Below, one piece after another: positions 6,220 to 21,736 of a DNA stretch of 64,000 nt. The notes under the pieces were generated by a model. It did no database searches and was not told the DNA's origin. It saw only the letters and a list, made by a program, of their open reading frames with translations. Both the position numbers and the translations under genes were made by a program. Within the stretch, counting starts at the first letter, position 1. Every line of letters begins with the position of its first letter. This stretch comes from an uncultured Verrucomicrobiae bacterium (GTDB lineage Bacteria > Verrucomicrobiota > Verrucomicrobiia > Chthoniobacterales > JAFAMB01): contig CAVXLD010000003.1 of assembly GCA_963762565.1 (NCBI GenBank), positions 736,001-800,000 on the forward strand. The letters run 5' to 3'.

Positions 6220-6450
6220 CGGGTGAGAAGTGATTGGTGAGAGGTGAGAGGGATGCGTGGGGAAGCACAAAGCGTGTTGAAGTGGTGCGGGGGTGAAAGG
6301 TGAAAAGTGAAAGGTAACAGCAGGTCACCGAACCGCCTTTACCCATTTTGTACCGATTCCACACAGCAGAATGGTCTTGGCGTAGCCTGAGCATTCTGCG
6401 ATAGCATCCAACGCTTACAAAAGCGTATGCTTTTGGGAGCGTTGGATGCT

Positions 6451-8211
6451 ATGGGCGTCGATGTATTCATAAGTTACGCGATTGCGGATAAGCTCACGGC
6501 AGATGCTGCCTGTGCGGCCTTGGAATCTGCGGGGATCCGTTGTTGGATTGCACCTCGCGATGTTCTGCCGGGAATGGACTACGCAGAAGCGATCATTGAA
6601 GCACTTGAGAAATGCCGCGGGATGCTCCTGATTTTTTCCTCGAACGCAAATCGCTCGAACCAAGTGAAGCGCGAAGTTGAGCGAGCGGTACATCATGGTA
6701 TCCCGATCATCCCTTTTCGTATCGAAGATGTGCCGCCAGCCCGAGCTCTGGAATATTATATCAGCTCACCGCATTGGCTCGATGCTCTTACGCCGCCGCT
6801 GGAGCAACATCTGAAGCAGCTCGCCTCCACCATTCAGATTTTGCTGGATCGGGCGAGCAGCCAGAGCAGTCAAGCGCCGGCAGGTCGCCGCGAGGAAAGG
6901 CTCGTTAGCCGCGTCTCTCAGCCGGCGGGCCCTGGCGCGCAAACCCCGAGCTCTGGCGCGCAAACCCCGAGCTCTGGCGGGACACAGTCCGGCTCGACAG
7001 GGGCCGCTCCGCAGAGCGGTTTTCCTGCTCATCCCAGCAGCGTCCCTGGAACGGTTGGGGGAGTGCCGCCTCCGGCGAAGCGAAAAGCTCCGGTGGCAGT
7101 GATCATCGTAATCGCGGTCCTGGCCTTTCTGGTGATCGCGTTCGTTTGTTTTGGGTTAGTTGCAGCGTATGTCGTCAGCCAAGGCCTAAAAAGAGAACAT
7201 GTAGCTGTACAGGTGCCCAGCCCAACCGCATTCTCGCCTTCACCCAAACCGCAACCTACTGAGACCTCGACTCCGACGGATGCAACCAGTGCCTTAGCAG
7301 CGGGTCAGACGCATGAAACGCAAGGCGACTACCAGACTGCAGTCAGTGATTACTCCGTGGCTATTCAACTGGATCCAAGCAATGCTGAATCCTATAGCAA
7401 ACGCGGCAACTGCTATAAGAATCTCGGGCAGTACGATCAAGCGCTAAGCGACTACAATACGGCGATCCGTTTGCGGCCGGATAATCCTGACTATTACAAT
7501 GACCGCGGAATCGTGCTTTGGAAGACGAAGCAGTACGACAACGCCATCGCAGACTACAACCAGGCGTTACACCTGAACGGCAACGTTTCCCGGGCCTATA
7601 ATAATCGGGGACTAGCCTATTACGACAAGGGCAATGTTCAGCAAGCGCTGAGCGACTATGACGCTGCCATGAAGGCAGACCCGCAGTTTGCCGATCCTTA
7701 CTACAATCGCGGCCTGCTGCATTATTACTCCAAGGAATACGATCCGGCGATTTCTGATTTCTCGGCCGCGATCGAACGCGAGCAGAGATACGCCAACGCT
7801 TATTACATGCGCGCACTTTGCTATCAGACCTTAGGAAACTATAAAAAAGCCATCAGCGACTATTCCTATGCGATCGATATCAACGACAATTTCTTGGATG
7901 CTTATAACAACCGGGGTTTGTGCTATGACGATTTAAAGGATGTCGATCACGCGATGTCTGACTATAACGAAGCGATCCGGAGAGACCAGAGTTACATGCT
8001 GGCGTACTATAACCGAGGCATCGCTCTGTCCGAGAAAGGAAAGCCTGAGGACGCCATTAACGACTTTAACGAAGCGATCCGTCTCAATCCGAACTACGGC
8101 CGGGCATACTATAACCGGGCAACGGCTTACCAGAAACTGGGGCAGGGGGATAAGGCCAAGGCCGATTTCGCCGAAGCGCGTCGCCTAGGAGTAACGGGCG
8201 GTAATCGGTGA
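6451..8211 (+). CDS. TIR domain / transmembrane / TPR-repeat protein
   Basis: N-terminal DVFISY..CWIAPRD..SNQVKREV (TIR_2 type), Pro/Ser linker, one TM helix, about 9 TPRs (AYNNRG ... A.SDY..AI); alternative start 6427. Confidence 0.9.
   Translation: MGVDVFISYAIADKLTADAACAALESAGIRCWIAPRDVLPGMDYAEAIIEALEKCRGMLLIFSSNANRSNQVKREVERAVHHGIPIIPFRIEDVPPARALEYYISSPHWLDALTPPLEQHLKQLASTIQILLDRASSQSSQAPAGRREERLVSRVSQPAGPGAQTPSSGAQTPSSGGTQSGSTGAAPQSGFPAHPSSVPGTVGGVPPPAKRKAPVAVIIVIAVLAFLVIAFVCFGLVAAYVVSQGLKREHVAVQVPSPTAFSPSPKPQPTETSTPTDATSALAAGQTHETQGDYQTAVSDYSVAIQLDPSNAESYSKRGNCYKNLGQYDQALSDYNTAIRLRPDNPDYYNDRGIVLWKTKQYDNAIADYNQALHLNGNVSRAYNNRGLAYYDKGNVQQALSDYDAAMKADPQFADPYYNRGLLHYYSKEYDPAISDFSAAIEREQRYANAYYMRALCYQTLGNYKKAISDYSYAIDINDNFLDAYNNRGLCYDDLKDVDHAMSDYNEAIRRDQSYMLAYYNRGIALSEKGKPEDAINDFNEAIRLNPNYGRAYYNRATAYQKLGQGDKAKADFAEARRLGVTGGNR
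6932..6979 (+). repeat. In-frame 21-bp tandem duplication (GAQTPSS x2)
   Basis: CTGGCGCGCAAACCCCGAGCT twice plus a partial copy. Confidence 0.9.
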
Positions 8212-8382: not shown

Positions 8383-9192
8383 GTGGAATCAATTTCAGTC
8401 CGAAGCGTACAGGCTTTGATGAGCAGCCTGGAAATGATCCACGGCGCGGAGGACTTAAAGCAATTCCCGGGCGTCGTGTTTAACGCGCTTGGCCACTTGA
8501 TCGAGGGCAGCCTTTTTTCATTGGACACATTCAACGTCAAGACAGGGGAAGTGATTAGTGCGACGAGCGACAATGTCCCAATCTCTTGCGAGATAAAGAA
8601 ACGGATTGTGGAATTGGTTCCGACGAATCCGGTCATCCCGATTGCGCTGAATGGCGCCAAAGGCGCGATCAGGCTCACCGATTGTATCAGTCAACGCCAG
8701 TTTGAACAGACCGCCCTTTACTTAGACGTTTTTAGACCGCTCCAAATACGCCACCAAACGGTGGTCACGCTTGACATCCCTGGGCATATCGCCGGGGTCA
8801 CCGTAAACCGGGACAAAGATTTCACCGACGAAGAAGCGCTCCTGCTAAGCTTGGCCGCCCCACATTTGGCTCTGGCCCATCGGAACCTTCAACGCATAGA
8901 AGCGATGAGAATCGCCGCAGATGAGGTCGTTCCGGGCCCCCAGGATCTCGAGCGGATTGGACTAACTCCGCGAGAGGCCGAAGTGTTACACTGGGTGATA
9001 AAAGGAAAACAGGACGGGGTCATTGCCACTATCCTAAGAATCAGCGTTCGAACCGTTCACCAGCACATCGCCCGCATCCTTCGAAAGCTCCAATCTGAGA
9101 CCCGCGGATCAGCAGGCTATGAGGCAATGGTCAAATTCAAGGGGCTACAGAATTGTTCCCTGAGCGGCATCGGTGAACCAGTGGCAGATTAG
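8383..9192 (+). CDS. LuxR-family HTH transcriptional regulator with GAF-like sensor
   Basis: C-terminal LTPREAEVLHWV..GK...IA..L.IS.RTV..H. Confidence 0.88.
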   Translation: MESISVRSVQALMSSLEMIHGAEDLKQFPGVVFNALGHLIEGSLFSLDTFNVKTGEVISATSDNVPISCEIKKRIVELVPTNPVIPIALNGAKGAIRLTDCISQRQFEQTALYLDVFRPLQIRHQTVVTLDIPGHIAGVTVNRDKDFTDEEALLLSLAAPHLALAHRNLQRIEAMRIAADEVVPGPQDLERIGLTPREAEVLHWVIKGKQDGVIATILRISVRTVHQHIARILRKLQSETRGSAGYEAMVKFKGLQNCSLSGIGEPVAD

Positions 9193-9271
9193 GCTGTTTG
9201 CTCCTAATCCTACGAACAAAGGCACAAGAGACGCACGCCGTTGTCCGGTACCGAAGCGCTAGGTTTTCGGC

Positions 9272-9432
9272 ATCGTCCTCGTGCTCGTGCTCGCCCTCGT
9301 GCTCGAAAAAACGGCTCCAACGCCATCTCGTGCGCAGACTCCGACGACAAAAACGAAACCCGGCGGACCTAGTCCTGGATCGCGACATATCTTGTCTGTC
9401 GCCTTTCGAGCACGAGCACGAGCACGAGGATG
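9272..9432. repeat. Repeat family F (CTCGTCCTCGTGCTCG ... CGAGCACGAGGA) inverted arms
   Basis: Related arms at 22948-23155, 46080-46470, 47945-48066 and 52243-52405. Confidence 0.75.
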
Positions 9433-9469
9433 AGGGTGAGAAGATCTCCGCGCGATCGACTTTGCGTTC

Positions 9470-11473
9470 TTAAGCGCGCTTCGCCTTTTCGCTACCTCTT
9501 GCGACATGGGTCGCGATTTCAGTTGCCCGTGAACCCTGAGTAGCCAGGTAAAGGCTATATAGCAAGCCGCAGTTGGGTAACAGCTCCTCCATCGTTCCTT
9601 GTTCCACGACGGATCCCTTGTCGATTACTACGAAGTAATCGCAGAATTGTAACAGCCAGTTCACGTCGTGGTCGACTACCATGACGGTTTTCCCGTTCGT
9701 GGCGTCTCGGAGTTTGTCGATCAGTAAAAATTTCTCCTCGTTATCCATCCCAACGGTCGGTTCGTCGAGCAAGAGGAACGTAGGGTCCCGGAGCAGACAA
9801 CGGGTTAAGGCTAGTAATTTTTTCTGTCCGCCAGACAAAGCGCGTGCGGCGGCAAGCTCGGTATCCAAGGTGATTGCGGGACGTTTCGTGGACAGGATAT
9901 CCCAGATGCCGGTCCTCCGGCAGAGCGCGATAAGCTCGTCATCTGTGGCCTCGGGTTTCGGCATACGCAAGTTATCACGCAGGCTGCCATAGAAGAACAC
10001 CGGGAACTGCGACATCATCACCGCATGTTGGCGGATGCTATCGAAGGTGAATTCAGTCGACGGATGGCCACCCAGCAAAATCTGACCCGACTGCGGATCA
10101 TAGAACCGAAGGAGCAGTTTAAAAAACGTTGTTTTGCCTTGGCCCATTTTCGCAACGAACCCGGTCCGCCTCCCAGGGGGTATCCGGAAGGTCAAGCCAG
10201 TAAAAACCGGATTAGCGTTCGGTTGATACGAAAAAGCCAGATCTCGCACTTCTATGGTCGGCTCGAGTGTGGCCGGTGCGATTGTGCCCGGCCGCTCCTC
10301 GGATCCGGTCTTGCGTTTAAGGACGGATTCAACGCGTTCAATGCTACCAAGACCGTTAAAAAGCATAACCATGCTTCCGGACAACGCGTTGATTGGGTTC
10401 ACCATCAGTGGCGCCAAGAGCAGGATAGTTAAAACATTGCCGATGGGCGCGGTCCCGTATGACTGAACCGCGAGCCATAGGCCTAGACCGAGAAGAATAA
10501 TTTGGACGACCAGGGTTGGCGTCTGGTTCAGGATGTTGATCGCGCTAACGGAGGTCTGTTGGCGGAGCTTGGCCCTTAGTGATTCTTCAAGAGTACTCTT
10601 ATACTTGGATGAAAAGAGCTTCTCAGATCGCATCGCCTGGATTTCTTCAGGAGACAATACTGCGCCGGTGACTAGACTGGAGAGTGCGGCCAAGGCTTGC
10701 TGAACTTCCCGGCCGGCGCCGGACAACTTTTCACCGAGCCTTCCCATCAGCCAGGGAGCAGCCAGAGCCAACAGAACAATCAGGATCAGGACCGCAGCTG
10801 TGGGCACTCTGGTACCTAAAAGGTCGATCCAGCCCGATAGCTTACTAAAGTTGTAGGCCATCTGGCCGGTGGTGATAACCAAAAGCAGCACTTGTATCAC
10901 TGGATCAACCAAGATTTGGCGAAGCGTCATCTGGGTCTCGACTGCCAGCGTGTTGACGATCGTGGCTAATTCTCCGCCGCTGTATTCAAAGAAGAACTCG
11001 GGAGATTGACCGAGAACCCGATCAAACACTTGGCTCCGCAGATAGTTCGACATCGTGATATCCATTCTGGTCCCTATCCACTTTGCCGGGATACCCAGAA
11101 CCACTCCAAGGATCGCAAACAGGATCCATAGGAAATAGCCAAGAACTACGTCGCTGCTTTGCTCTTGTTGCCGTCCTTGGGCGGATTCGACGCTTGGAGT
11201 CTGCCCAGTTCCGGCTGGGCCAGGCCCTGTCGTTACTGAACCAGCGTTCTCCCTTTTATCTCTGGCAGCGCCTTGGCGGTCTTGCCAATTAGCGACCTGC
11301 TGGAGGTGGCTGGTTACTTCACCTAGAAATTGAGTAGCGGCGTTCCCAACCAACGAGCTTGCGAGCGATACGACGACGTATAACAGAGCCAACGGCCGGC
11401 AAACGCCGAGGAGTCGCCAACTCCATAACCAGAGTTTGGCCCATTCGATCCGCTGAACAGGTTTGGCAGCCAT
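9470..11473 (-). CDS. ABC exporter, fused permease/ATPase (no C39 peptidase domain)
   Basis: About 6 TM helices; Walker A AKMGQGKTT, signature LSGGQ, Walker B LLLDE, H-loop VDHD. Confidence 0.9.
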   Translation of the reverse strand: MAAKPVQRIEWAKLWLWSWRLLGVCRPLALLYVVVSLASSLVGNAATQFLGEVTSHLQQVANWQDRQGAARDKRENAGSVTTGPGPAGTGQTPSVESAQGRQQEQSSDVVLGYFLWILFAILGVVLGIPAKWIGTRMDITMSNYLRSQVFDRVLGQSPEFFFEYSGGELATIVNTLAVETQMTLRQILVDPVIQVLLLVITTGQMAYNFSKLSGWIDLLGTRVPTAAVLILIVLLALAAPWLMGRLGEKLSGAGREVQQALAALSSLVTGAVLSPEEIQAMRSEKLFSSKYKSTLEESLRAKLRQQTSVSAINILNQTPTLVVQIILLGLGLWLAVQSYGTAPIGNVLTILLLAPLMVNPINALSGSMVMLFNGLGSIERVESVLKRKTGSEERPGTIAPATLEPTIEVRDLAFSYQPNANPVFTGLTFRIPPGRRTGFVAKMGQGKTTFFKLLLRFYDPQSGQILLGGHPSTEFTFDSIRQHAVMMSQFPVFFYGSLRDNLRMPKPEATDDELIALCRRTGIWDILSTKRPAITLDTELAAARALSGGQKKLLALTRCLLRDPTFLLLDEPTVGMDNEEKFLLIDKLRDATNGKTVMVVDHDVNWLLQFCDYFVVIDKGSVVEQGTMEELLPNCGLLYSLYLATQGSRATEIATHVARGSEKAKRA

Positions 11474-11599
11474 CTATTCCCGTTGGACGATTTGTTCGGC
11501 CCAGCACGAGAAATTCAATTGTGGCGAATTGGAGGATGTCTCTCTGCAGATTCAAGCCCCAATGTTTGGGGGGAACTCACCAGGCGCTTCGTTCTCGCC

Positions 11600-11750
11600 C
11601 TCGTCTTTCCGACTTCGCCAACGTCCCAGTTGTGGAGCGCGCCTCGCTTGCGAGGCCGACTTCCAGCGGTTGGCAATTTATAGACCATGGGCTTCGTCGG
11701 ACACGCTGTCCTCGAATCCGGCCGCGCGGAGTGTTGGAGTACTGCGCCAA
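11600..11750. repeat. Composite repeat carrying a family B arm
   Basis: Closely similar to 44965-45110 (CCGACTTCGCCA..GTGGAGCGCGCCTCGCTTGCGAGGCCG..GGCTTCGTCGGAC.. GCTGTCCTCGAATCCGG). Confidence 0.8.
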
Positions 11751-11797
11751 GTCCGAAAAGCACTCGCGTAGCGGGTTGGAGATGCTGATGGACGAGA

Positions 11798-12034
11798 TCA
11801 GGAAACAACCTGGTACGTACCCTGGCATTGACCGCAGGTGAACCATTCGCCTTCGTAGTCGAGCGATATGATTCGATTAGTGCCGCAGTGCGGACAGGCT
11901 ACAAAAATAAGAACGGACCGGCCCTCAACCTCTGTGCCGGCCTCCGATGCTGCTCTTTCTTTGCCCTGTTTGGTCGGGTCGAGATCGCCCTCTGTCTTTT
12001 TGGTTTGACGCTCTTGTTTCAGTGATTCAGCCAT
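11798..12034 (-). CDS. Small protein: charged leader, EVEGR motif, CxxC...CxxC Zn-ribbon-like C-terminus
   Basis: 78 aa from ATG 12034; CPHC and CGQC; co-oriented between cyclase and ABC exporter. Confidence 0.7.
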   Translation of the reverse strand: MAESLKQERQTKKTEGDLDPTKQGKERAASEAGTEVEGRSVLIFVACPHCGTNRIISLDYEGEWFTCGQCQGTYQVVS

Positions 12035-12154
12035 TTGAATTATCTTTCTATTTGTTTTTGCCCGCCGATACCAGCAGGCATCCATCGATATGACGGCAGA
12101 ACGACTTTTATTTGCAAACTAATTTGTCATTCGGTGCGGCCGATTGGGCGAGAC

Positions 12155-12360
12155 TTGGAGGGGAGCCGCTTTGTAGCTTGGCAGTTCTGTCGGGTGCCAG
12201 CAGGCGGCTCCCGGGAAATGCCCACCGTTAGCCATGGATCAACGACGGCTCGTTTCGATTTGGAACCCGCTGACGGAACTGCTTAGCTCTAGGAACGTTC
12301 CCGGGAGCCGCTTGCTGCCAACCTACAGAGTTGCCAAGTTACAAAGCGGCTCCCCTCCAG
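12155..12360. mobile_element. MITE-like family A copy
   Basis: TGGAGGGGAGCCGCTTTG ... CAAAGCGGCTCCCCTCCA with the internal palindrome pair. Confidence 0.75.
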
Positions 12361-12411
12361 GCCTTTGGCATGCAGCGCCGCTGTCTCATTGGGACAACAG
12401 TACGCTTGCTC

Positions 12412-14460
12412 CTATGGCTCTGCGACCTCGGTATCCGCACCGTCTGTAATCGGTGAGCTCAATCGGAAGAGGGGATAGCGACCGTAGTTTTTGGCGAAAT
12501 CAATCTGGCCAAGATAGTCGAACCCGAACCGGCGGCGCTTATCCCGCCTCTGGCTATCGATAATAACGTAAGAAACGAACGCTTCGGTTGCCCAGACCTC
12601 GCCCTCGCGAACAATCGGCTCGATACGGGCAGCGTGGCTGACGTGCGATCCGGTGAAAGAGATTTGGCGAATGACCGGGTCAAGGCAAAGGATCACCGGA
12701 CCGGTATGGAGACTGATCCTGAGGTTGAGCGGAGCGGTTAACAGTCGCCGCCAACCTCCTTGCTTCAGCATCTCCAGCAGCCGCAGAGCGACGTCCCCTG
12801 CCGCCACCGGTTCATCGAAAACGAAGTAGATGGCATCACCCCAGGTGTTGGTCAGTACCGGGCGAGGTGGTTCCGAAATCAGCGAGGAAATCATTCCCAG
12901 AAATTCAGGAGCGAAGTGCTTGATCTGGTCTTCAGGGATCTTGCTGTAACCGACAACATCAGCAAACAGAAGTGTCTTTATCGTCTGCTGGCCTTCACTG
13001 ACCGTGATTTCTCCAAATGAAATCCGGTCTAACTTCTCATTCTTTGTTTTAGCAGCCGTGATCTTTTCCAGATCGACTACATCGACCGCATGGCCTCTTG
13101 ACGTCCAAAAGTCCACAAAACTGGAAGTGCCGCCTAGACCGTCTCCACGCCGGCCGTCCCAGACCGCCATCGGCCGCACATCCGAGGCCAGTTTATCAGA
13201 CCGGAACAGGGCCATCCCGTTCATGCAGTTGTTGCAGTAGACATAACCGAGATTCCCGCTAGGAGCGCCTTGTTGAGAAAGGAAGGTGACGGAAGTGGCC
13301 TCCTCGAGGGCCCGATCGAATCGCCGTTCCCATACCTGGCCACCGATCAATACGCTGGTCTGCTTAAACTCTTCTTTTCGCCAAGGAAGAACCACCTGAA
13401 TATCGGCATCTCGGGCTAACATTGCTTCGATGAAAAGCAGATCCGAACCACATGCCGCGGACGAGATCCCGATCTGGGCGTCAAGCGAATCGAGAGTCAG
13501 GCGTATCTGTTCTTCGACGGCCTCCACGTATTGGGCTGGGAAACGAGGCACTTCACGGCCCGGTGCATCAACCATGTGACCGGAGAAAATGATGACACCC
13601 GGGACACGGAAGATCCTTTTGAGCGCGCCGAAGTCCCAATCCAGCGATTCGCAGATTCGGTTGGCTTGTTTGCTAGTCGAGCTTAAATCGCCCCAGCCCC
13701 GCTTTTGGTGCATTAGCAGCGAATATTTTTGGTAATACTCAAAAGTTGGTTGAGTAATCTCTCCCACATCAGCGCTTAGCACTAACTCAGCCTCGGCCAT
13801 TGATGCCAGGGCCCAGTAGTCATCCGGGTTAGAAGCCAGCGATTCGAGGCAGAGTTGTTTCACTTCTCCGGCCAATCTACGAGCGGCTGCCCGGTCGTTC
13901 AGCCAGAGTGACAAGGTACAGGCGTTTATGGCAGGATAGTATTCTCCATTCACCGCGTAAGCCTGCAAATAGCAGGCTCGCGATCGGGCCAGAAACTTCT
14001 CCCGAGCTGGCCCCGGAAATTTGGCCAGATCTTTGTAAGTCCGTCCCAGTGCGCTTAACGATTTATCGTCCTCGGCACGGATCGCTAACAGATCTCGCAG
14101 GATCTTTTGAGCTTCTCGAATCGAGCCTAGCCGCGACAGGGCGATCGCTTGTTCGCGCGCCAGATCGATTTGTTGGTTTTTTACTATCTCCGGAAATTTC
14201 TGGCGAAACGCAGTCTCCAGGCTCTCGCTGCCCTCGCTCGCGATTTCCAAGGCGATCAGATTCTCGCCTAGCTGGGTTGCGGCTTTCGCTAAGCGAGTAT
14301 AGACCGAGCTATCCTTGCTGAACGGGAGTCTGTCGTCAGAGTCATCGCCCTGCTGATATTGCGCCACCAGTCGTGGAAACCATTCAAAACGCGCGTACCA
14401 AAACCGGCGAATTCCGCGAACGGACTTCAGCGCGGGCATTAGCTCGTCCAGAATAGGCAT
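12412..14460 (-). CDS. TPR-sensor (DUF4071/TRAF-binding-like) + SLOG-like + class III nucleotidyl cyclase
   Basis: LGRTYKD, YYPAINA and DYWALASMAE (TPR-S/DUF4071-like); FSGHMVD and SSAACGSDLLF (SLOG-like); LFADVVGYS, NTWGDA, RISLHTGPV and AARIE (cyclase). Confidence 0.85.
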   Translation of the reverse strand: MPILDELMPALKSVRGIRRFWYARFEWFPRLVAQYQQGDDSDDRLPFSKDSSVYTRLAKAATQLGENLIALEIASEGSESLETAFRQKFPEIVKNQQIDLAREQAIALSRLGSIREAQKILRDLLAIRAEDDKSLSALGRTYKDLAKFPGPAREKFLARSRACYLQAYAVNGEYYPAINACTLSLWLNDRAAARRLAGEVKQLCLESLASNPDDYWALASMAEAELVLSADVGEITQPTFEYYQKYSLLMHQKRGWGDLSSTSKQANRICESLDWDFGALKRIFRVPGVIIFSGHMVDAPGREVPRFPAQYVEAVEEQIRLTLDSLDAQIGISSAACGSDLLFIEAMLARDADIQVVLPWRKEEFKQTSVLIGGQVWERRFDRALEEATSVTFLSQQGAPSGNLGYVYCNNCMNGMALFRSDKLASDVRPMAVWDGRRGDGLGGTSSFVDFWTSRGHAVDVVDLEKITAAKTKNEKLDRISFGEITVSEGQQTIKTLLFADVVGYSKIPEDQIKHFAPEFLGMISSLISEPPRPVLTNTWGDAIYFVFDEPVAAGDVALRLLEMLKQGGWRRLLTAPLNLRISLHTGPVILCLDPVIRQISFTGSHVSHAARIEPIVREGEVWATEAFVSYVIIDSQRRDKRRRFGFDYLGQIDFAKNYGRYPLFRLSSPITDGADTEVAEP

Positions 14461-14499
14461 CTACCGCCCGATCATCGCGTGTCGCCGCCTCGGTTGCAA

Positions 14500-14818
14500 G
14501 AAAGGCGAGAGGGAGGCGAAAAGGCGAGAGGGCGAGAGGGAGGCGAAAGGGCGAGTGGGCGAAAGGGCGAAAGGGCGCAGACCGGTGCGGCGTGTCGGCG
14601 TGCGGGTTCCCGGGGGGCGTTGGGCCCTGCTATTAGATGGGACTTATAGGACTTATATGACCTATAGGACCAGCCCCTCATCAGTCCTATAGGTCCTATA
14701 GGTCGTATAGGTCCCATCCGATCGCGGAGCCCAGGGCCTCTCCCGAACCCGCGCGGCGCTATGCCCTTTCGGCCGCTTCGCCCTTTTCGCCCACACGCCC
14801 TTTCGCCGTTTCGCCTCT
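14500..14818. repeat. Inverted GGCGAAA/GGCGAGA arrays around a GGACCTATAG palindromic core
   Basis: Left arm 14503-14575, right arm TTTCGCC 14765-14815; core GGGACTTATAGGAC ... GTCCTATAGGTCCC. Confidence 0.75.
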
Positions 14819-14819
14819 T

Positions 14820-15995
14820 CTAGCTGCCGTCTACCGCGAACTTCTCCCGGATTGCCGTGATCAAAAAGCTGTCCTGGTTGCGAACCAAATGGGCCCGAAA
14901 ATAACAGACGCCGCTCACGACCTTTCCCTGATTCCGCACGGTAAAAGAGACTTTGAAATTAACTTCATAGGAACCTCCCCGATCCGTAACATTGATCATC
15001 GGCACGCCTAACAATTCATATCGGCGCGAGGGCCACTTTTGATCGTAGTCCTGCAGTTCCCGGTAAATCGACTCATGGGTGCATTGTCCGTTTTCGAAAT
15101 AGTCGCAAGGTGAGGCGTAGTATTCGGTTTGACTCTCGTCCGAGCTGCTTTCACCGGCTCGAACAAACTCCGTGATGAATCGAGCCAGGGAGCCCGTTCC
15201 CTCACTTTCTGCATAGGTAGACCGGCTGGTTTCAGTTTGATCCGCGACAATCAGCACGGTTGAGCCTTTGGCGGATTGAAACACCTGCTGATCGGTGAGC
15301 ACTTCTTGCCGGCTAGAGGGCGTGAAATTAGGAATGATCTTGCGAAGCAGCACTTGAGCTTCATTAATCGGAATAGCGAAGTTAATCCGCTCCGGTAGCG
15401 TTCCGTTTTCTTTTGCGTACTGGAGGGAGTTGATTTTGGCCACAACGATTCCCACCACCTCTCCGTGATTGTTAAGCAGTGGTCCGCCGCTGTTACCCGG
15501 GTTAACATTAGCGTCGATCTGGAATAAGTGTGCGCCGCTGGTACGGCCTTCTCTGACGGCGTTAACCTTGCCATCGGACGCCGACAAAGCCGTTCCGAGC
15601 TCGCCTGGTAACGGATATCCTAACACGATAATGGAATCGAGAACCTGGACCGCCTCGGAGGAGGCAATAGGCAAAGCCGTCAAATTACGCAGCGATACTT
15701 GAAGGATAGCAAGATCGTTTTCCTGGTCGCTTGCAGCCACCCGCGCAGAGATAGCCTCACGTCCAGGAACCGTGACGCTAATTCGGGTCGCATCCTTGAT
15801 GACGTGGTAGTTCGTCAAGATGTAGCCGTTCTGTTGAATCACGAAACCACTGCCGCACATCGCCGCCGCCGCGGCTGAGCCCAGCCTGAAACAAAGAAAA
15901 ATAGCCAAAACCAGCGTTATCCAGGAAAGATACCGCCAGGACAACGGCCGCCCTTCAGCCCCCATCGGCGTGGAGATAATAGAGTCGGTGCGCAT
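14820..15995 (-). CDS. Exported trypsin-like (S1C) serine protease with C-terminal NTF2-like domain
   Basis: Signal/TM segment; GSGFVI, LTNYHVI, DLAIL, PGNSGGPL. Confidence 0.88.
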   Translation of the reverse strand: MRTDSIISTPMGAEGRPLSWRYLSWITLVLAIFLCFRLGSAAAAAMCGSGFVIQQNGYILTNYHVIKDATRISVTVPGREAISARVAASDQENDLAILQVSLRNLTALPIASSEAVQVLDSIIVLGYPLPGELGTALSASDGKVNAVREGRTSGAHLFQIDANVNPGNSGGPLLNNHGEVVGIVVAKINSLQYAKENGTLPERINFAIPINEAQVLLRKIIPNFTPSSRQEVLTDQQVFQSAKGSTVLIVADQTETSRSTYAESEGTGSLARFITEFVRAGESSSDESQTEYYASPCDYFENGQCTHESIYRELQDYDQKWPSRRYELLGVPMINVTDRGGSYEVNFKVSFTVRNQGKVVSGVCYFRAHLVRNQDSFLITAIREKFAVDGS

Positions 15996-16065
15996 AGGAA
16001 AATTGGTTCAACAATGGCTCGGTCTTTATCGGAAAGACGCCGCGGTAGTCGGCGATTGCAGGGAT

Positions 16066-16272
16066 CCGTGGAGCGCGCCTCGCTTGCGAGGCCGTGGTAA
16101 GCAGGGTTGAATGCGTGGCAGGCCTGAGCTCTAACTTCGCTCTGCAGTGCGCGATAGGCGGCCATGCCGCTTTCGGGCCAACAGAACCACAACAGAGCGT
16201 TGACTACCGTGGGCGGCCCGAGCGTTACCCCTTTGTTCACCACGGCCTCGCAAGCGAGGCAGCGCTCCACGG
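16066..16272. repeat. Palindromic repeat family B (CGTGGAGCG.GCCTCGCTTGCGAGGCCG ... CGGCCTCGCAAGCGAGGCA.CGCTCCACG)
   Basis: About 35-bp inverted arms; full copy at 42259-42447, single arms at ~11633, 39036-39128, ~44994 and 51683-51712. Confidence 0.85.
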
Positions 16273-16281
16273 GCGCCGATC

Positions 16282-17079
16282 CTATCGTTCCCGCCCGTTG
16301 CCGGCGTTTCCAGCCAGTTCCCACGGTTTGGCTAACTGGTGAAGCAACGACTTCGCTTGGAGTGGCACAAGATCTGGGTAAACCGAAAGGATCCGGGCCA
16401 GCAAGGCGGCTCCATGTGGCGCAGCAAAGCTGCTGCCGTGCATCCTACGTCGCTTACCGCCCTTCCATGCCGCCTCAAAGCCGGTGCCGCGAGCCACAAA
16501 CTCGACCAGGTTTCCTGGTCGATAGTAAAAATCTTCTTTGTCCTTCAGTTCACCGTAATTGAAGGTAATTACCGAAGGGAAATAGCCGGGCCATTCGGGC
16601 CTGGAGTAATCATAATTATTGCAAGCCGCTACCACGTGAACGCCCTTCAAATAGGCCAGATCAATCCAAGCTTTGTATCGATGGATATGCTCCGCCACTC
16701 CGCAACCAAAGCTGCAATTAAGAATTTTGTAGTCGTGGTCCAACGCCAGATTCACGCCCTCGGAGATTACATCCGTGCGAGAGGCATTGTTCTCGTTTAG
16801 TACCCGGAAGCTACCGATCGCCGCCTCGGGCGCTAGCGAACGGATAATAGCTGCCACCGCCGTTCCGTGCCCAAATAGATCGGTGCCGTCCCCAGACCGA
16901 ACCACTATCTGTAAGTCGCTCCCGACCACATGAATGTCGTCCGTCAATTGCAGCCCATTTAAGTCCGGGTGAGTGACCTCGATTCCGGAATCGATCACTG
17001 CAATCTTGATATCTTTACCGGTTCCAGTCGTTAGAGCATCACGAGCCTGCTCGACCGTGATCCAAGAACTGGTCTTCAT
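16282..17079 (-). CDS. S8 (subtilisin-like) serine peptidase, catalytic domain only
   Basis: Triad IAVIDSG, GHGTAVA, GSSFAAP; no signal peptide or prodomain visible. Confidence 0.9.
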   Translation of the reverse strand: MKTSSWITVEQARDALTTGTGKDIKIAVIDSGIEVTHPDLNGLQLTDDIHVVGSDLQIVVRSGDGTDLFGHGTAVAAIIRSLAPEAAIGSFRVLNENNASRTDVISEGVNLALDHDYKILNCSFGCGVAEHIHRYKAWIDLAYLKGVHVVAACNNYDYSRPEWPGYFPSVITFNYGELKDKEDFYYRPGNLVEFVARGTGFEAAWKGGKRRRMHGSSFAAPHGAALLARILSVYPDLVPLQAKSLLHQLAKPWELAGNAGNGRER

Positions 17080-17699
17080 CAGTTTGCTTCCCAGCCGATG
17101 CCGGTGCGCAGAAGTCGATAATTGACGAGATCGGTAAGAACCAAGGCGGCCCTTTTGACTGTATCAAGATTACCCATGGTAAAGCCGGGAGGTGAACCAG
17201 CGACCGGTACCGAGCGCCCGTCCTCCTGCCGGACATTGATCAGTTGGACACAGGAAACCACCCCTCGGCAGGCGTTCAAAATGTAAAACGGCACGACAAT
17301 CATGGCGTAGGTCGTAACTCGGAGTTTCTGATCCAGCAGACCGCTGTGAAGTTCATGCCGGTAAACTTCGTTCTCGGCGAACCCCTGTTCACTAATAAAC
17401 GAGGTGCTCACGATCCCCGCGTTCAGCGGTTGCTTGAACCCGACAATGTTTGTGGCGTTCGGACCGGAATTGTACGCAATCACGAGGTGTTCTCGTGCCT
17501 GATCGAGGATCCAGAGACTACCTTCATCGGCGTTGACCGCCGCGAACACGTCGCGCAGCACATTTCCCGTTCGAAAATCGAGTAGGCTGCCGAAATTCTC
17601 TGGGGTAATCAGATCCGCCATTCTCTGCAGACGTTCTGTTAACGGCGCACGGAGCGGTGCGAATCGCTCGTCGGGCAGGAAGTTCAGGCGAGTAGACAT
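17079..17699 (-). CDS. Stand-alone GAF domain protein
   Basis: ADEGSLWILD, PLNAGIV, MIVVPF..GVVSCV; TGATG overlap with S8 gene; start taken at ATG 17699 because the longer ORF runs through repeats. Confidence 0.8.
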   Translation of the reverse strand: MSTRLNFLPDERFAPLRAPLTERLQRMADLITPENFGSLLDFRTGNVLRDVFAAVNADEGSLWILDQAREHLVIAYNSGPNATNIVGFKQPLNAGIVSTSFISEQGFAENEVYRHELHSGLLDQKLRVTTYAMIVVPFYILNACRGVVSCVQLINVRQEDGRSVPVAGSPPGFTMGNLDTVKRAALVLTDLVNYRLLRTGIGWEAN

Positions 17700-17938
17700 A
17701 CCGAACCGGTGAGAGGTGATTGGTGAGAAGTGATTGGTTACGCGCTGCGTTTCCTCTATGAGTACACCGGTTGGGGCCACTACGTCCACTCAGTCCACTG
17801 AGGTCCACTTCGTCCACTAGCCGACCACGCCCGCTCGCCTCCTAGCCTTCTAGATCCTAACTCCTAGCTCCTTCTTCTGCCATTTTCCATAGACTTTCTT
17901 GTCAGCATCGCTAATATCCTGCCCCGTTCAGTTTCGGT

Positions 17939-18637
17939 ATGGCGAACCAAGACGATTTGACTGTCGCCCAGGCAGCGCTGCGCGGCGACTCAGCGGCTGT
18001 CAGTGCGGTCCTCGACGAGTTACCTTACGCTTTGGGTGTACTCCTCTCGAAATGTACCGACTCGGATTCTGAAGAAAAATCGCGCGAGATTATTGATGAT
18101 TTGCCCGGCGACCTTCTAGCTGGGGTCGACCGTGATGGCAAAACCATCAAGCTGTTAGAGATGTACCAAGGCCGCGCTTCCTTGCGGTCATGGATTACGG
18201 TTGTAGCTCTCTCTCGCTTGAAAAGCTGGTGGCGAGGTCCGGGCTATCGGAAGCGTGAGAGAGGAGTTGAGCCGCACCAGGATCAAGGCACGTTATCGGG
18301 TAACGGAAGCGATCGACCCGCTGAAGAGCCCCACAATGCCTCGGATGTGCTCGCTCTTTTGGCCGATGCCTTAACCGATAGCTTGCGAAGTCTAACCCCG
18401 AGGGAATCGGTCTGTCTCCGGTTGGTTTATTTACACAGCGTTGAGCAGCAACGTCTCGCCAGAATGTTGGGGTGTCACGCCGCTACCATCAGCCGCGACC
18501 TTGACCAAACCAAACTTGCCATTAAGCGGCGGCTAATTTGGAATCTTAAATTGCTTGATCCTTTCTTAGAGATTACTTGGGAAGATTGCGTGAGGCTTTG
18601 TGCGTCAGAATCGATCTCGATTTTTGACAGCTTTTGA
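17939..18637 (+). CDS. ECF-type RNA polymerase sigma-70 factor
   Basis: Region 2 (A..GD..A, YQGRASLRSWI) and region 4 (LTPRE..CLRLVY...QQRLARMLGCHAATISRDL). Confidence 0.85.
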   Translation: MANQDDLTVAQAALRGDSAAVSAVLDELPYALGVLLSKCTDSDSEEKSREIIDDLPGDLLAGVDRDGKTIKLLEMYQGRASLRSWITVVALSRLKSWWRGPGYRKRERGVEPHQDQGTLSGNGSDRPAEEPHNASDVLALLADALTDSLRSLTPRESVCLRLVYLHSVEQQRLARMLGCHAATISRDLDQTKLAIKRRLIWNLKLLDPFLEITWEDCVRLCASESISIFDSF

Positions 18638-18664
18638 ACCTGCAAAGCAGGCCAAAATTTGGAC

Positions 18665-18892
18665 ATGGACGAAGTAGATCAGTTCAGGGCTGTGATGGGT
18701 TTCCTGGAACGGTTTGAGACCGAAGTGAGCGGTCGATCGGCTGAGTCGCTTGGCGCCGAAATGGAGGCAAAAATTCGCGGTCTAGCAGCTGGCACCCTCG
18801 ATGACAGTGAACGTGAACAGGTGCTGGAGGAGGTCTCCCGGAACCGAGCCGGCCTGGAATTGCTGGCTTCGTGCCTTCAGCGCGAGCATTAA
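18665..18892 (+). CDS. Small anti-sigma-domain-like protein, paralog 1
   Basis: 75 aa; QFRAVMGFLERFETEVSGR and LAAGTLDDSEREQVL; paralogous to 19381 and 19765 ORFs. Confidence 0.78.
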   Translation: MDEVDQFRAVMGFLERFETEVSGRSAESLGAEMEAKIRGLAAGTLDDSEREQVLEEVSRNRAGLELLASCLQREH

Positions 18893-18896
18893 GTCG

Positions 18897-19274
18897 TCCT
18901 CGTCCTCGATTTGAGCGGTTGGTGCGTTGATGCGATGCGCGGCTGCCCACCGCCTGGAGGGGAGCCGCTTTGGCATTCATCTCTCCGCCCTCGCGAATTT
19001 CCTCTCAACACTAATCGGGCCGAAGCGTGCAAAAACAGGCGGCTCCCGGGAACCACCCAACGGTTTGCAACTCTACGGCCGGGTTGTAAACGAATCGGAG
19101 CCACGGGTAAATCATCACGCTGGGTTATTCGCGGGAGCCGCCTGTTGCGAGATTCTTTCGTCGGATTGAGCGCTGGAACAAATATCGCGAGGTCGCCGCG
19201 TGCATGCCAAAGCGGCTCCCCTCCGGGCGGTGGGCGATCGCACAACGCACCAACCGCTCGAAAATCGAGGACGA
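18897..19274. mobile_element. MITE-like family A copy with extended inverted flanks, inserted between paralogs 1 and 2
   Basis: GAGCGGTTGGTGCGTTG ... CAACGCACCAACCGCTC outer arms; internal sequence closely similar to copies at 54131 and 63760. Confidence 0.8.
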
Positions 19275-19380
19275 AAACCGACGGCCCGCTCCTCGCGCCC
19301 CTGCAAATTTCCTGCAATCGAAGCCCGACCTGCAGTCCTTCCAAAGGGAACGAATAATTGTTCCCCAAGGGAAAAATGTA

Positions 19381-19638
19381 ATGAATGTACTTGGCACGTC
19401 TCAGGATTTTGAAGAATTTGGCGCGCTGCTCCACTTTTCGGATGACGCGTCTGAAGAGGTATTTGGCCGAATGGCCGACGATATTTCGGCTGAAGCCGAC
19501 GACCGGTTAAGGGCGCTCGCCAGCGGAAAGCTAGGTCCTAAAGAGCGAAGTTACCTGCTCGAAGAACTAGTTGGTAGCCCCGAATTGCTTAGGCGATTGG
19601 CGGAACACCTCCGAGGTCAACTGTCGAACGAGCATTAG
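19381..19638 (+). CDS. Small anti-sigma-domain-like protein, paralog 2
   Basis: 85 aa from ATG 19381; EEVFGR and RLRALASGKLGPKERSYLLEEL..SPELLRRLA. Confidence 0.75.
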   Translation: MNVLGTSQDFEEFGALLHFSDDASEEVFGRMADDISAEADDRLRALASGKLGPKERSYLLEELVGSPELLRRLAEHLRGQLSNEH

Positions 19639-19764
19639 CGATCCAGCCCGCACTTTGTCCGGCAAGCGAATTCGTGCAACTGGGCTTTCGATCGAGCGTC
19701 TTTTCACCGGACCGCACTGGCAGTGCTACTACTAAGCGGAGTCTGAGCGGCCAAGATTAATACG

Positions 19765-19986
19765 ATGACAGAAGAACAACAATTTCGAGCCGTACTTGGT
19801 TTCCTCGGCAGATTCGGAGCCGAGGTCTCAGGCCGGATCGCGCTGGATCCCGACTTCGACGACCGGCTACGGTTATTGGCTGATGGCTCGTTCGCTCGAG
19901 ACCAAAAAGCTCTGGATGATATCATAGCCGTCACCGCCGGGGACCCGGAGGCGCTAAGCCGATTGGCGGATTATCTGCGGCGATAA
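19765..19986 (+). CDS. Small anti-sigma-domain-like protein, paralog 3
   Basis: 73 aa; QFRAVLGFLGRFGAEVSGR and RLRLLADG ... DPEALSRLADYL. Confidence 0.78.
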   Translation: MTEEQQFRAVLGFLGRFGAEVSGRIALDPDFDDRLRLLADGSFARDQKALDDIIAVTAGDPEALSRLADYLRR

Positions 19987-21475: not shown

Positions 21476-21736
21476 ATGAAAAAATTGGTTCTAATTCTTG
21501 GGCTGGTATTCGCCGTAAACCTGGTTGCGCAGGTGCCTGCGAAAGCAGGTTGGTGGATCGGTTTCCCCATACCTTTGCCAGTTCCGGTACCCGTCTGGTA
21601 CGGTCCGGGTCCGGGTTGGGTGGGGCCAGGTTACTACGCTGGCGGCTATTATTGGGGACCCGGTGGCTATCGTTACTACGGGCATCCTTACTGGCGTGGC
21701 CGGTACTGGGCGCATGGCCGCTGGTACTGGAGGTAA
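21476..21736 (+). CDS. Small secreted Gly/Tyr/Trp/Pro-rich protein
   Basis: Signal peptide MKKLVLILG...AKA then GYY/GYW/GRYW repeats. Confidence 0.78.
   Translation: MKKLVLILGLVFAVNLVAQVPAKAGWWIGFPIPLPVPVPVWYGPGPGWVGPGYYAGGYYWGPGGYRYYGHPYWRGRYWAHGRWYWR

Follow-up and report, generated by a model that had tools for sequence, protein, structure and literature searches.

We analysed a 64,000-nt stretch of contig CAVXLD010000003.1 from an uncultured Verrucomicrobiae bacterium (the whole stretch is called the window below), in which ten genes were counted between positions 9470 and 19986. These genes form two divergent arms. At their junction lie a stand-alone GAF protein and an S8 (subtilisin-family) protease on the minus strand, and an extracytoplasmic function (ECF)-type sigma factor followed by three paralogous microproteins (mp1, mp2 and mp3) on the plus strand. 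The GAF-S8 pair and the ECF-mp pair make up a module that is real and conserved, and the microprotein family (mp) shares one short motif, EVxG[RH], with an otherwise different family of Zn-ribbon peptides encoded in the minus arm. A first-pass annotation of this DNA had listed the ten genes and four EVxGR motifs, and its coordinates and translations are exact. It had also assigned a GAF and a SLOG label to proteins without a corresponding Pfam match, and both labels are upheld by predicted folds, with pLDDT (predicted local distance difference test) values of 90.6 and 82.4, matching cyclic nucleotide-binding GAF structures and YpsA/DprA-type structures, respectively.

The GAF protein (206 amino acids, aa) is encoded at 17079-17699 on the minus strand, with the longest open reading frame (ORF) reaching to 17789, and its stop codon overlaps the start of the S8 gene, to which it is translationally coupled. 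The window protein has no Pfam match; its homologs are 206 aa long, and PF13185 or PF01590 is present in some of them. The best PDB matches of the predicted fold are 1mc0 (PDE2A; Foldseek E 4e-9), 5w10 (Lcd1 with cAMP) and 1ykd (CyaB2). GAF domains that bind cAMP or cGMP carry an NKFDE-type signature; this pattern is not obvious among the invariant residues of the family alignment. The S8 protease (265 aa; 16282-17079, minus; Peptidase_S8, 2.5e-21) is predicted to be cytoplasmic, and neither a signal peptide nor a propeptide was seen on reading its sequence. Among 27 sequences, the catalytic residues D30, H71 and S217 are invariant, as is D157, and N155 is at least 90% conserved.

On the plus strand, the ECF-type sigma factor (232 aa; 17939-18637) is recognised by TIGR02937 with a score of 45.7 vs a cut-off of 42.9. 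Its region 4 (Sigma70_r4) stays below the cut-off in the window protein, and region 2 (Sigma70_r2) is above the cut-off in the ortholog of a related locus, L033. The sigma factor gene is followed by mp1 (77 aa; 18659-18892, plus; EVSGR at 18722-18736), which is the positional ortholog of the single mp in most loci. Then come mp2 (about 85 aa; ~19381-19638, plus, with the longest ORF from 19204; EVFGR at 19456-19470), for which congeners have 86-aa orthologs, and mp3 (73 aa; 19765-19986, plus; EVSGR at 19822-19836). Three paralogs are found in the genus of the window vs one in most loci, and because mp1 to mp3 are paralogous, they are treated as a single family, without independent weight for each copy.

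The family alignment of mp shows a pattern, F-A-x-G-x-[CL]...E-R...L-L...P...L-A, which can be likened to the N-terminal domains of anti-sigma factors. A search of the mp profile against PDB sequences returned no anti-sigma factor, and the top match was protein A (E 0.015). Considering the gene context, the small helical character, this conserved pattern and weak hints of zf-HC2, mp is most likely the anti-sigma factor of the adjacent ECF sigma factor. When the GAF-ECF intergenic regions of five congeners are aligned, a block some 45-65 nt upstream of the ECF start stands out as conserved. Moreover, an orphan mp-like ORF lies elsewhere in the same genome (contig C7, 483363-483860, plus), of which only the C-terminal half matches the mp family (E ~1e-6). 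Without the N-terminal helix and the EVxG[RH] tag, it resembles a form that is already "cut".

Related loci were collected by a scan with the GAF alignment, one genome per species, which gave 117 relatives; 80 loci were kept and their ORFs were searched with profiles. By the titles of their records, nearly all of them come from Verrucomicrobiota (Chthoniobacterales, Limisphaerales, Pedosphaera and others) and one from Methylomirabilota. They include a core locus (L100) of a cultured species, Chthoniobacter flavus Ellin428. An S8 gene is present in 78 of the 80 loci and adjacent to the GAF gene in 75, mp is present in 63, and an ECF sigma factor in 56, in 55 of them next to mp. When only the loci flanked by 5 kb or more on each side are considered (51 loci), S8 is present in all 51, mp in 41, ECF in 41 and the protein with a cyclase domain described below in 24. 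An initial search had found the GAF protein in 15 of 61 related genomes, with S8 following GAF in all 16 fetched regions. Generally, the order is ECF>mp>GAF>S8, in which the mp stop overlaps the region of the GAF start codon; in a second arrangement, GAF>S8 is followed by <mp and ECF>.

Of the loci, 17 lack mp, several of them being cut by contig ends. For five mp-less GAF-S8 loci with full flanks, the whole genomes were searched, and all five carry a tagged mp elsewhere, adjacent to an ECF gene (L109-L113). In a sample of 201 genomes of the order, 31 contain both mp and GAF, 3 GAF only, 7 mp only and 160 neither; the relatives are not independent, and thus no statistic is given. Most of the mismatches in this sample come from a single genus, whose copies are divergent and score weakly, or from assemblies that are fragmented. 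In an even sample of the phylum, mp was found in 2 of 301 genomes, indicating that only part of the phylum has the module, with a patchy spread inside families; in the family of the window it occurs in 10-11 of 23. An apparent confinement of ECF and mp to two genera was ruled out by the profile searches of the loci, being an artefact of short flanks and BLAST sensitivity. From the above linkage counts, the core consists of ECF-mp and GAF-S8, the cyclase protein is a frequent neighbour, and the ABC exporter, the Zn-ribbon peptides and a trypsin-like protease are add-ons.

The motif EVxG[RH] is the best-conserved feature of both the mp and the Zn-ribbon families, which otherwise show no resemblance. 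The mp alignment comprises 67 rows, taken from the window and the related loci; at the motif positions, E stands in 56 of them, V in 64, G in 59 and R, H or K in 64. A profile search of 1.84 billion representatives found 438 mp proteins (at most 50% identity) at E <=0.001 and 215 at <=1e-10, all of them small. In the best 150 of these 438, the residues are E in 130 (D in 15), V in 134 (A in 10), G in 144, and R in 121 plus H in 23. The Zn-ribbon peptide of the window (78 aa; 11798-12034, minus, with the longest ORF to 12085, while orthologs start at Met 12034) has a 39-aa hydrophilic leader ending in EVEGR (11918-11932, minus), followed by a 39-aa CxxC...CxxC core. The form [ED][VA]x[GA][RH] stands about 10 residues before the first CxxC in 18 of 18 sequences from the window and the loci, and before the first CxxC in 68 of 68 clusters drawn from 5.8 billion proteins.

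In order to set a background, the strict form EV.G[RH] was counted over the 80 loci, whose 10,532 ORFs hold about 1.23 million residues. It has 85 sites, 52 of them in mp (40 of 64) or Zn-ribbon proteins (12 of 17), and none was found in the S8, GAF, ECF and ABC proteins of these loci. Outside both families the background is about 2.7e-5 per residue, or about 0.002 expected per protein of Zn-ribbon size. At the residue before the last, P2, loci with both families have G in both (6 loci) or A vs A/P (4 loci of one clade), and GAF-S8 is the sole partner present alongside both tagged families. The observation of the first-pass annotation that small proteins of both arms carry a common EVxGR motif is therefore real and above chance (52 of 85 strict sites). 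Its proposed test of co-conservation turned out positive, S8, GAF, mp with the motif, ECF and the gene order being kept together; ABC/Zn-ribbon (10 of 80 loci) and the trypsin-like protease (6 of 80) are occasional additions.

The motif can be compared with sites of known S8 leader peptidases. According to the available part of a review on RiPP leader peptidases, NisP recognises (A/G-5)(A-4)x2(R-1) and the cytoplasmic ElxP recognises (D/E-5)(L/V-4)x2(Q-1) (PMC10885120). Judged by sequence, EVxG[RH] has the layout of such S8 lanthipeptide leader-peptidase sites, (D/E-5)(L/V-4)x2(P1).

A complex of GAF, S8 and mp1 was predicted with a 27-row alignment per chain, taken from the same loci, together with three controls. 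The interface score ipSAE is 0.77 (0.75, 0.77 and 0.82 in the runs) vs 0.00 for the best of the three controls, at least 84% of the contacts are common to the runs, and the pLDDT of the partner is at least 61. In calibration, the ipSAE mark was reached by 116 of the 157 complexes with solved structures and by 2 of the 215 mismatched pairs, a guide that is rough here (own alignments, three chains). In the model, residues 21-30 of mp1 run along S8 residues 30-31, 71, 94-105, 123-128, 152-157 and 212-218. V23, placed in the S4-like pocket, pairs with S8 residues 94, 99, 100, 102, 105 and 124-126, G25 and R26 pair with S217, N155 and residue 152, and residues 64-71 of mp1 make additional contacts. 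This is the canonical P4-to-P1 pose of subtilisins, and it would imply a cut after R26 (EVSGR/S). The invariant D157 lies in the stretch that touches R26, and so fits a basic residue at P1.

Zn-ribbon genes are found in 10 of the 80 loci (17 genes), and in 9 of these 10 loci they are adjacent to an ABC gene, forming arrays of 2-4 diverging tandem copies in the style of precursor-peptide arrays. In one locus, L056, the position of mp directly upstream of GAF-S8 is taken by a Zn-ribbon peptide of 58 aa that carries EAGGR (L056:9756-9932), and no mp or ECF gene is present within 10 kb of it. Strong matches to the ABC gene occur in 17 of 80 loci. In the window, this gene (9470-11473, minus) encodes an exporter with fused transmembrane and ATPase domains (ABC_membrane and ABC_tran in Pfam) and without a C39 peptidase domain; none of its best NCBIfam similarities, which are to exporters of type I secretion and of bacteriocins, reaches the cut-off. 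The fetched regions of the congeners L022, L023, L024 and L028 contain no ABC ortholog, the contigs of L022 and L028 ending before that position. A Q/G/S/T-rich insert of about 55 residues follows the first hydrophobic segment of the exporter (residues ~55-110; 10900-11330, minus), and the N-terminal 114 residues, including this insert, have no Pfam match.

The 682-aa protein encoded at 12412-14460 (minus) combines TPR-S (Pfam, 8.1e-13), a SLOG-like middle domain and a class III cyclase domain, as assigned by Pfam, predicted fold and PDB alignment. The middle domain gives nothing significant in Pfam; its model matches best with YpsA (2nx2; TM-score 0.70 on target), ShosA, the molybdenum cofactor (Moco) carrier protein and DprA, which are SLOG-type folds. 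The Pfam score of the cyclase domain is 18.3 vs a cut-off of 21.9 in the window and 33.9 in an ortholog; when aligned to a soluble guanylyl cyclase (3et6, E 2.5e-6), the domain of the window retains the two Asp residues that bind metal as well as the Arg. Between this gene and S8 lies a gene (14820-15995, minus) for a membrane-anchored trypsin/HtrA-like serine protease (Trypsin_2, 5.7e-34) without PDZ and with a C-terminal domain, the last 161 aa of which have no significant Pfam match; it occurs in 6 of 80 related loci. Pfam matches above cut-off were obtained for the ABC, TPR-S, Trypsin_2 and Peptidase_S8 proteins of the window, and PADLOC models gave only generic protease and ABC family matches to the locus proteins.

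Related loci differ around the sensor-like gene. In the commonest type, represented by L033, S8 is followed by a His-rich protein with a CobW_C domain and then by the TPR-S/SLOG/cyclase gene, and the opposite strand encodes a stand-alone SLOG-like protein and a 1077-aa TPR-CHAT protease (features were noted at 11474-12568, 14523-15209 and 15595-18828 of L033). Variants of the sensor include a fusion of a SLOG-like domain with SLATT_1, a two-transmembrane effector domain (L047:17110-18591), and a TPR-S/SLOG/cyclase protein with a C-terminal RyR domain (L102:6006-8804).

Next to the locus in the window, a TIR-transmembrane-TPR protein and a LuxR/GerE-type regulator are encoded at 6427-8211 and 8383-9192, both on the plus strand. 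Their position is kept in the congeners L023 and L024 and not in more distant loci. We also considered TIR as a conserved neighbour, and the profile built from the window protein matched 17 loci; none of the six matches scanned with Pfam contains TIR (two kinase-TPR, one OmpR-TPR, two FecR-TPR-TonB-like and one TPR-CHAT protein), and the candidate was dropped. The gaps of the locus hold imperfect palindromes with arms of 27-82 nt (9264-9442, 12151-12364, 14589-14765, 16077-16260 and 18926-19254). Those at 12151-12364 and 18926-19254 share sequence, and they look like a dispersed family of repeats between genes, similar to repetitive extragenic palindromic (REP) sequences or miniature inverted-repeat transposable elements (MITEs). 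Beyond the plus arm, at 21476-21736 (plus), there is an 86-aa ORF whose start resembles a signal peptide and which then runs into a segment very rich in G, Y, W and P.

On this basis we propose the following scheme. At rest, mp would hold the ECF sigma factor, as the gene context suggests. A ligand bound by GAF, perhaps a nucleotide from the neighbouring TPR-S/SLOG/cyclase sensor, would switch on or unmask S8. The protease may recognise E(P5)-V(P4)-x-G/A(P2)-R/H(P1), a recognition supported by motif conservation and the docking model, and would cut after P1, by which the N-terminal helix of mp would be parted from the C-terminal helical domain and the sigma factor freed. In genomes with the add-ons, S8 may also remove the Zn-ribbon leader, and the adjacent ABC protein may export the 39-aa core, as adjacency and the analogy with LanP/LanT suggest. 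The Zn-ribbon peptide that occupies the mp position upstream of GAF-S8 in L056 speaks for this scheme. We judge it slightly more likely than not that S8 recognises the tag of both families and in this way governs the ECF sigma factor. A GAF-gated subtilase for which a signal both frees the ECF sigma factor and matures Zn-ribbon peptides for export, by one tag on two unrelated families, is offered as a tentative picture with the balance tilted against it. We are similarly doubtful of the full chain including a cyclase-derived ligand, and the activation step from cyclase through GAF to S8 is pure inference.

Several results weigh against this scheme. The docking pose of mp1 is the canonical one of subtilisin substrates and inhibitors, may have been learned from solved subtilisin complexes, and fits a substrate and a standard-mechanism inhibitor alike. 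The model lists no confident contacts between mp and GAF, and GAF-S8 binding is unscored there. For the anti-sigma role, no match of mp at threshold was found in Pfam, NCBIfam, PADLOC or PDB sequences, anti-sigma families included; the hints of zf-HC2 are weak, being sub-threshold matches in 6 of 27 family members (best E 0.0039) and an Atlas lead (0.80) to a cluster in which 41% of members have zf-HC2. A shared ECF-type promoter was sought as pairs of 5-mer, spacer and 4-mer and as k-mers in 34 non-redundant regions upstream of ECF genes, and none was found (the best pair occurs in 7 sequences vs 5-6 in shuffles). No RNA run is among the 20 runs that hold part of the stretch. As for the signal, the catalytic (transition-state) Asn of the cyclase is replaced by Ser in the window and likewise in the L033 ortholog, and loci in which the cyclase protein lies within 10 kb of GAF-S8 number 27 of 80, or 24 when the 51 with long flanks are taken. 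As for the cargo, the low counts of Zn-ribbon (10 of 80) and ABC (17 of 80) genes mark them as add-ons and not as core, and within the fetched regions of the window's genus, L023 has a Zn-ribbon gene without ABC and L024 has neither. Finally, the co-variation at P2 amounts to one evolutionary event.

The alternative that survives best keeps the same mechanism and specifies its role. The locus may be an anti-phage or conflict system, in which TPR-S/SLOG/cyclase detects the invader and GAF-S8 acts as the effector leading to sigma-driven defence or dormancy; we regard this as possible, though clearly a minority view. It would agree with the patchiness within families described above, with TPR-S being a "sensor" repeat in Pfam, and with the recurring neighbours (TIR-TM-TPR in the window, TPR-CHAT and a stand-alone SLOG-like protein in L033, the SLOG-like/SLATT_1 fusion in L047 and TPR-CHAT in L073). 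However, PADLOC gives generic family-level matches only, most of the "TIR-TPR" profile matches in other loci are TPR proteins without TIR, and in several Chthoniobacter loci GAF-S8 stands beside lpxC-fabZ- and lpxA-like genes (named from sequence only).

Next, mp could be an inhibitor or chaperone of S8 that binds through its EVxG[RH] loop, with Zn-ribbon or other proteins as the true substrates and mp switching between S8 and sigma. The predicted active-site pose, common to substrates and Laskowski-type inhibitors, and the contacts of mp residues 64-71 would suit such a role, and so would an S8 protease without its own propeptide and the presence of mp in the same genomes as GAF-S8 (31 with both in the order sample, 3 with GAF only and 7 with mp only). 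Nevertheless, the adjacency of mp and ECF in 55 of 80 loci is far above what is expected for a dedicated protease inhibitor, and the tag of the Zn-ribbon peptides stands at the boundary of leader and core, where cleavage is the natural reading; we consider this explanation improbable. No better placed is a cluster for the production of a bacteriocin or signal peptide, with Zn-ribbon product, S8 leader peptidase and ABC exporter, in which ECF and mp are ordinary regulators and the cyclase and trypsin-like proteins are unrelated. The tandem diverging Zn-ribbon genes beside ABC (9 of 10 loci), the LanP-type layout of the leader motif and the exporter without its own peptidase domain all point in this direction, but 70 of the 80 GAF-S8 loci lack the peptide and ABC genes while mp and ECF travel with GAF-S8, the same tag on mp stays unexplained, no modification enzyme was found in the locus by Pfam, and two congeners are without ABC. 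Last, it is very unlikely that the motif is no protease site at all (a structural turn or sigma contact in mp, and a convergent feature or the target of another reader, GAF or ABC, in the Zn-ribbon peptides): GAF is as constant a neighbour as S8 and cleavage itself is only predicted, but most mp loci have no ABC gene, in the model the motif is placed at S8 rather than at GAF (every control scored 0.00), and the P5/P4/P1 layout matches known S8 leader sites.

If S8 indeed reads the tag and controls the sigma factor, the consequences reach beyond this locus. So far, the signal-responsive release of an ECF sigma factor by a protease is known from CRISPR-linked systems (CalpL-CalpT-CalpS and Craspase) and from membrane proteolysis cascades. 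The module would be a free-standing chromosomal version built from other parts (GAF and S8), and a pathway from second messenger through protease to sigma factor outside CRISPR, where it should be noted that cas genes and CRISPR arrays near the loci were not searched for. On the tentative GAF-gated picture, the S8 enzyme would be the first protease under GAF control and the first leader peptidase common to a regulator and a cargo, and one tag on a regulator and on exported Zn-ribbon peptides suggests a simple coupling of gene expression to peptide maturation. The module is spread in soil Verrucomicrobiota, with the 438 mp representatives and the 31 of 201 genomes of the order holding mp and GAF. 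It further predicts a miniature soluble anti-sigma family that current models miss; that undetected soluble variants of anti-sigma factors probably exist is expected in the available part of the ECF classification paper (PMC7826278). The predicted cleavage site is exact and testable, and with the core in the cultured Chthoniobacter flavus Ellin428 it is accessible at the bench.

The first-pass annotation did not recognise the locus as a named system, which agrees with our literature searches. No description of the module was found in the available parts of the literature on conflict systems, on ECF, subtilisin and GAF, and on subtilases and anti-sigma factors, although supplements of conflict papers may list such neighbourhoods. 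In the same way, the module is unmentioned in the available parts of two eLife papers on conflict systems and of the ECF classification paper, the supplements lying outside that search.

Four known systems can be set beside the module. CalpL-CalpT-CalpS comprises the cA4-activated SAVED-Lon protease of a type III CRISPR system, an anti-sigma factor and a sigma factor of ECF-like type, as described in the available part of the report (bioRxiv 10.1101/2024.05.08.593097). As far as that part goes, the logic is alike in both: a sensor-coupled cytoplasmic protease cuts a soluble anti-sigma factor and so frees an ECF-type sigma factor, with clustered genes, the anti-sigma role and the cleavage being predicted in our case. 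On the same footing, they differ in the protease, S8 instead of Lon, in the separate GAF instead of a fused SAVED, and in the candidate signal source, TPR-S/SLOG/cyclase instead of Cas10; moreover, a second tagged, substrate-like family and an exporter are sometimes attached here. Searches of the locus proteins with Pfam and PADLOC gave no match to Lon or SAVED, and no sequence relationship was found between mp and CalpT-type anti-sigma factors. The anti-sigma factor of that system is reportedly much larger than mp.

In Craspase, Csx29 is said to cleave Csx30 and thereby to affect an ECF sigma factor. The complex couples Cas7-11 with the TPR-CHAT protease Csx29, according to the available part of its description (PMC10028731). 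Like it, the present module has a cytoplasmic protease tied to an ECF sigma factor and activated by a signal (the activation being proposed here), whereas the protease of Craspase is a caspase-like CHAT protein activated by RNA binding, without GAF or S8.

The regulatory part can also be compared with ECF sigma factors and their class I (zf-HC2/ZAS) anti-sigma factors, which it resembles in the small gene directly downstream of ECF and in the weak hints of zf-HC2, within what the available part of the classification describes (PMC7826278). In contrast to this class, mp is soluble, has about 75 aa and falls below every model threshold, and the proposed protease is a cytoplasmic S8 and not a site-1/site-2 membrane protease. 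The other part of the module has its counterpart in the LanP/LanT pair of class I lanthipeptide clusters: in the accessible part of the sources, these share with it an S8 protease with an intact triad, an ABC exporter without a peptidase domain and tandem small precursor genes. Within the same limits, ElxP is alike in the layout of recognition and in being cytoplasmic, as is predicted for S8 here. Unlike class I lanthipeptide clusters, the locus has a CxxC...CxxC Zn-ribbon core, a GAF partner for the protease and the same tag on a non-exported, regulator-like protein, and LanB, LanC or other modification enzymes are absent from the Pfam and NCBIfam matches of its ten proteins. With neither SAVED-Lon nor LanB/LanC, the module would work like CalpL-CalpT-CalpS and LanP/LanT without membership in either. 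By analogy, then, it is closest in logic to CalpL-CalpT-CalpS and Craspase, and closest to LanP/LanT in its protease, tag and exporter.

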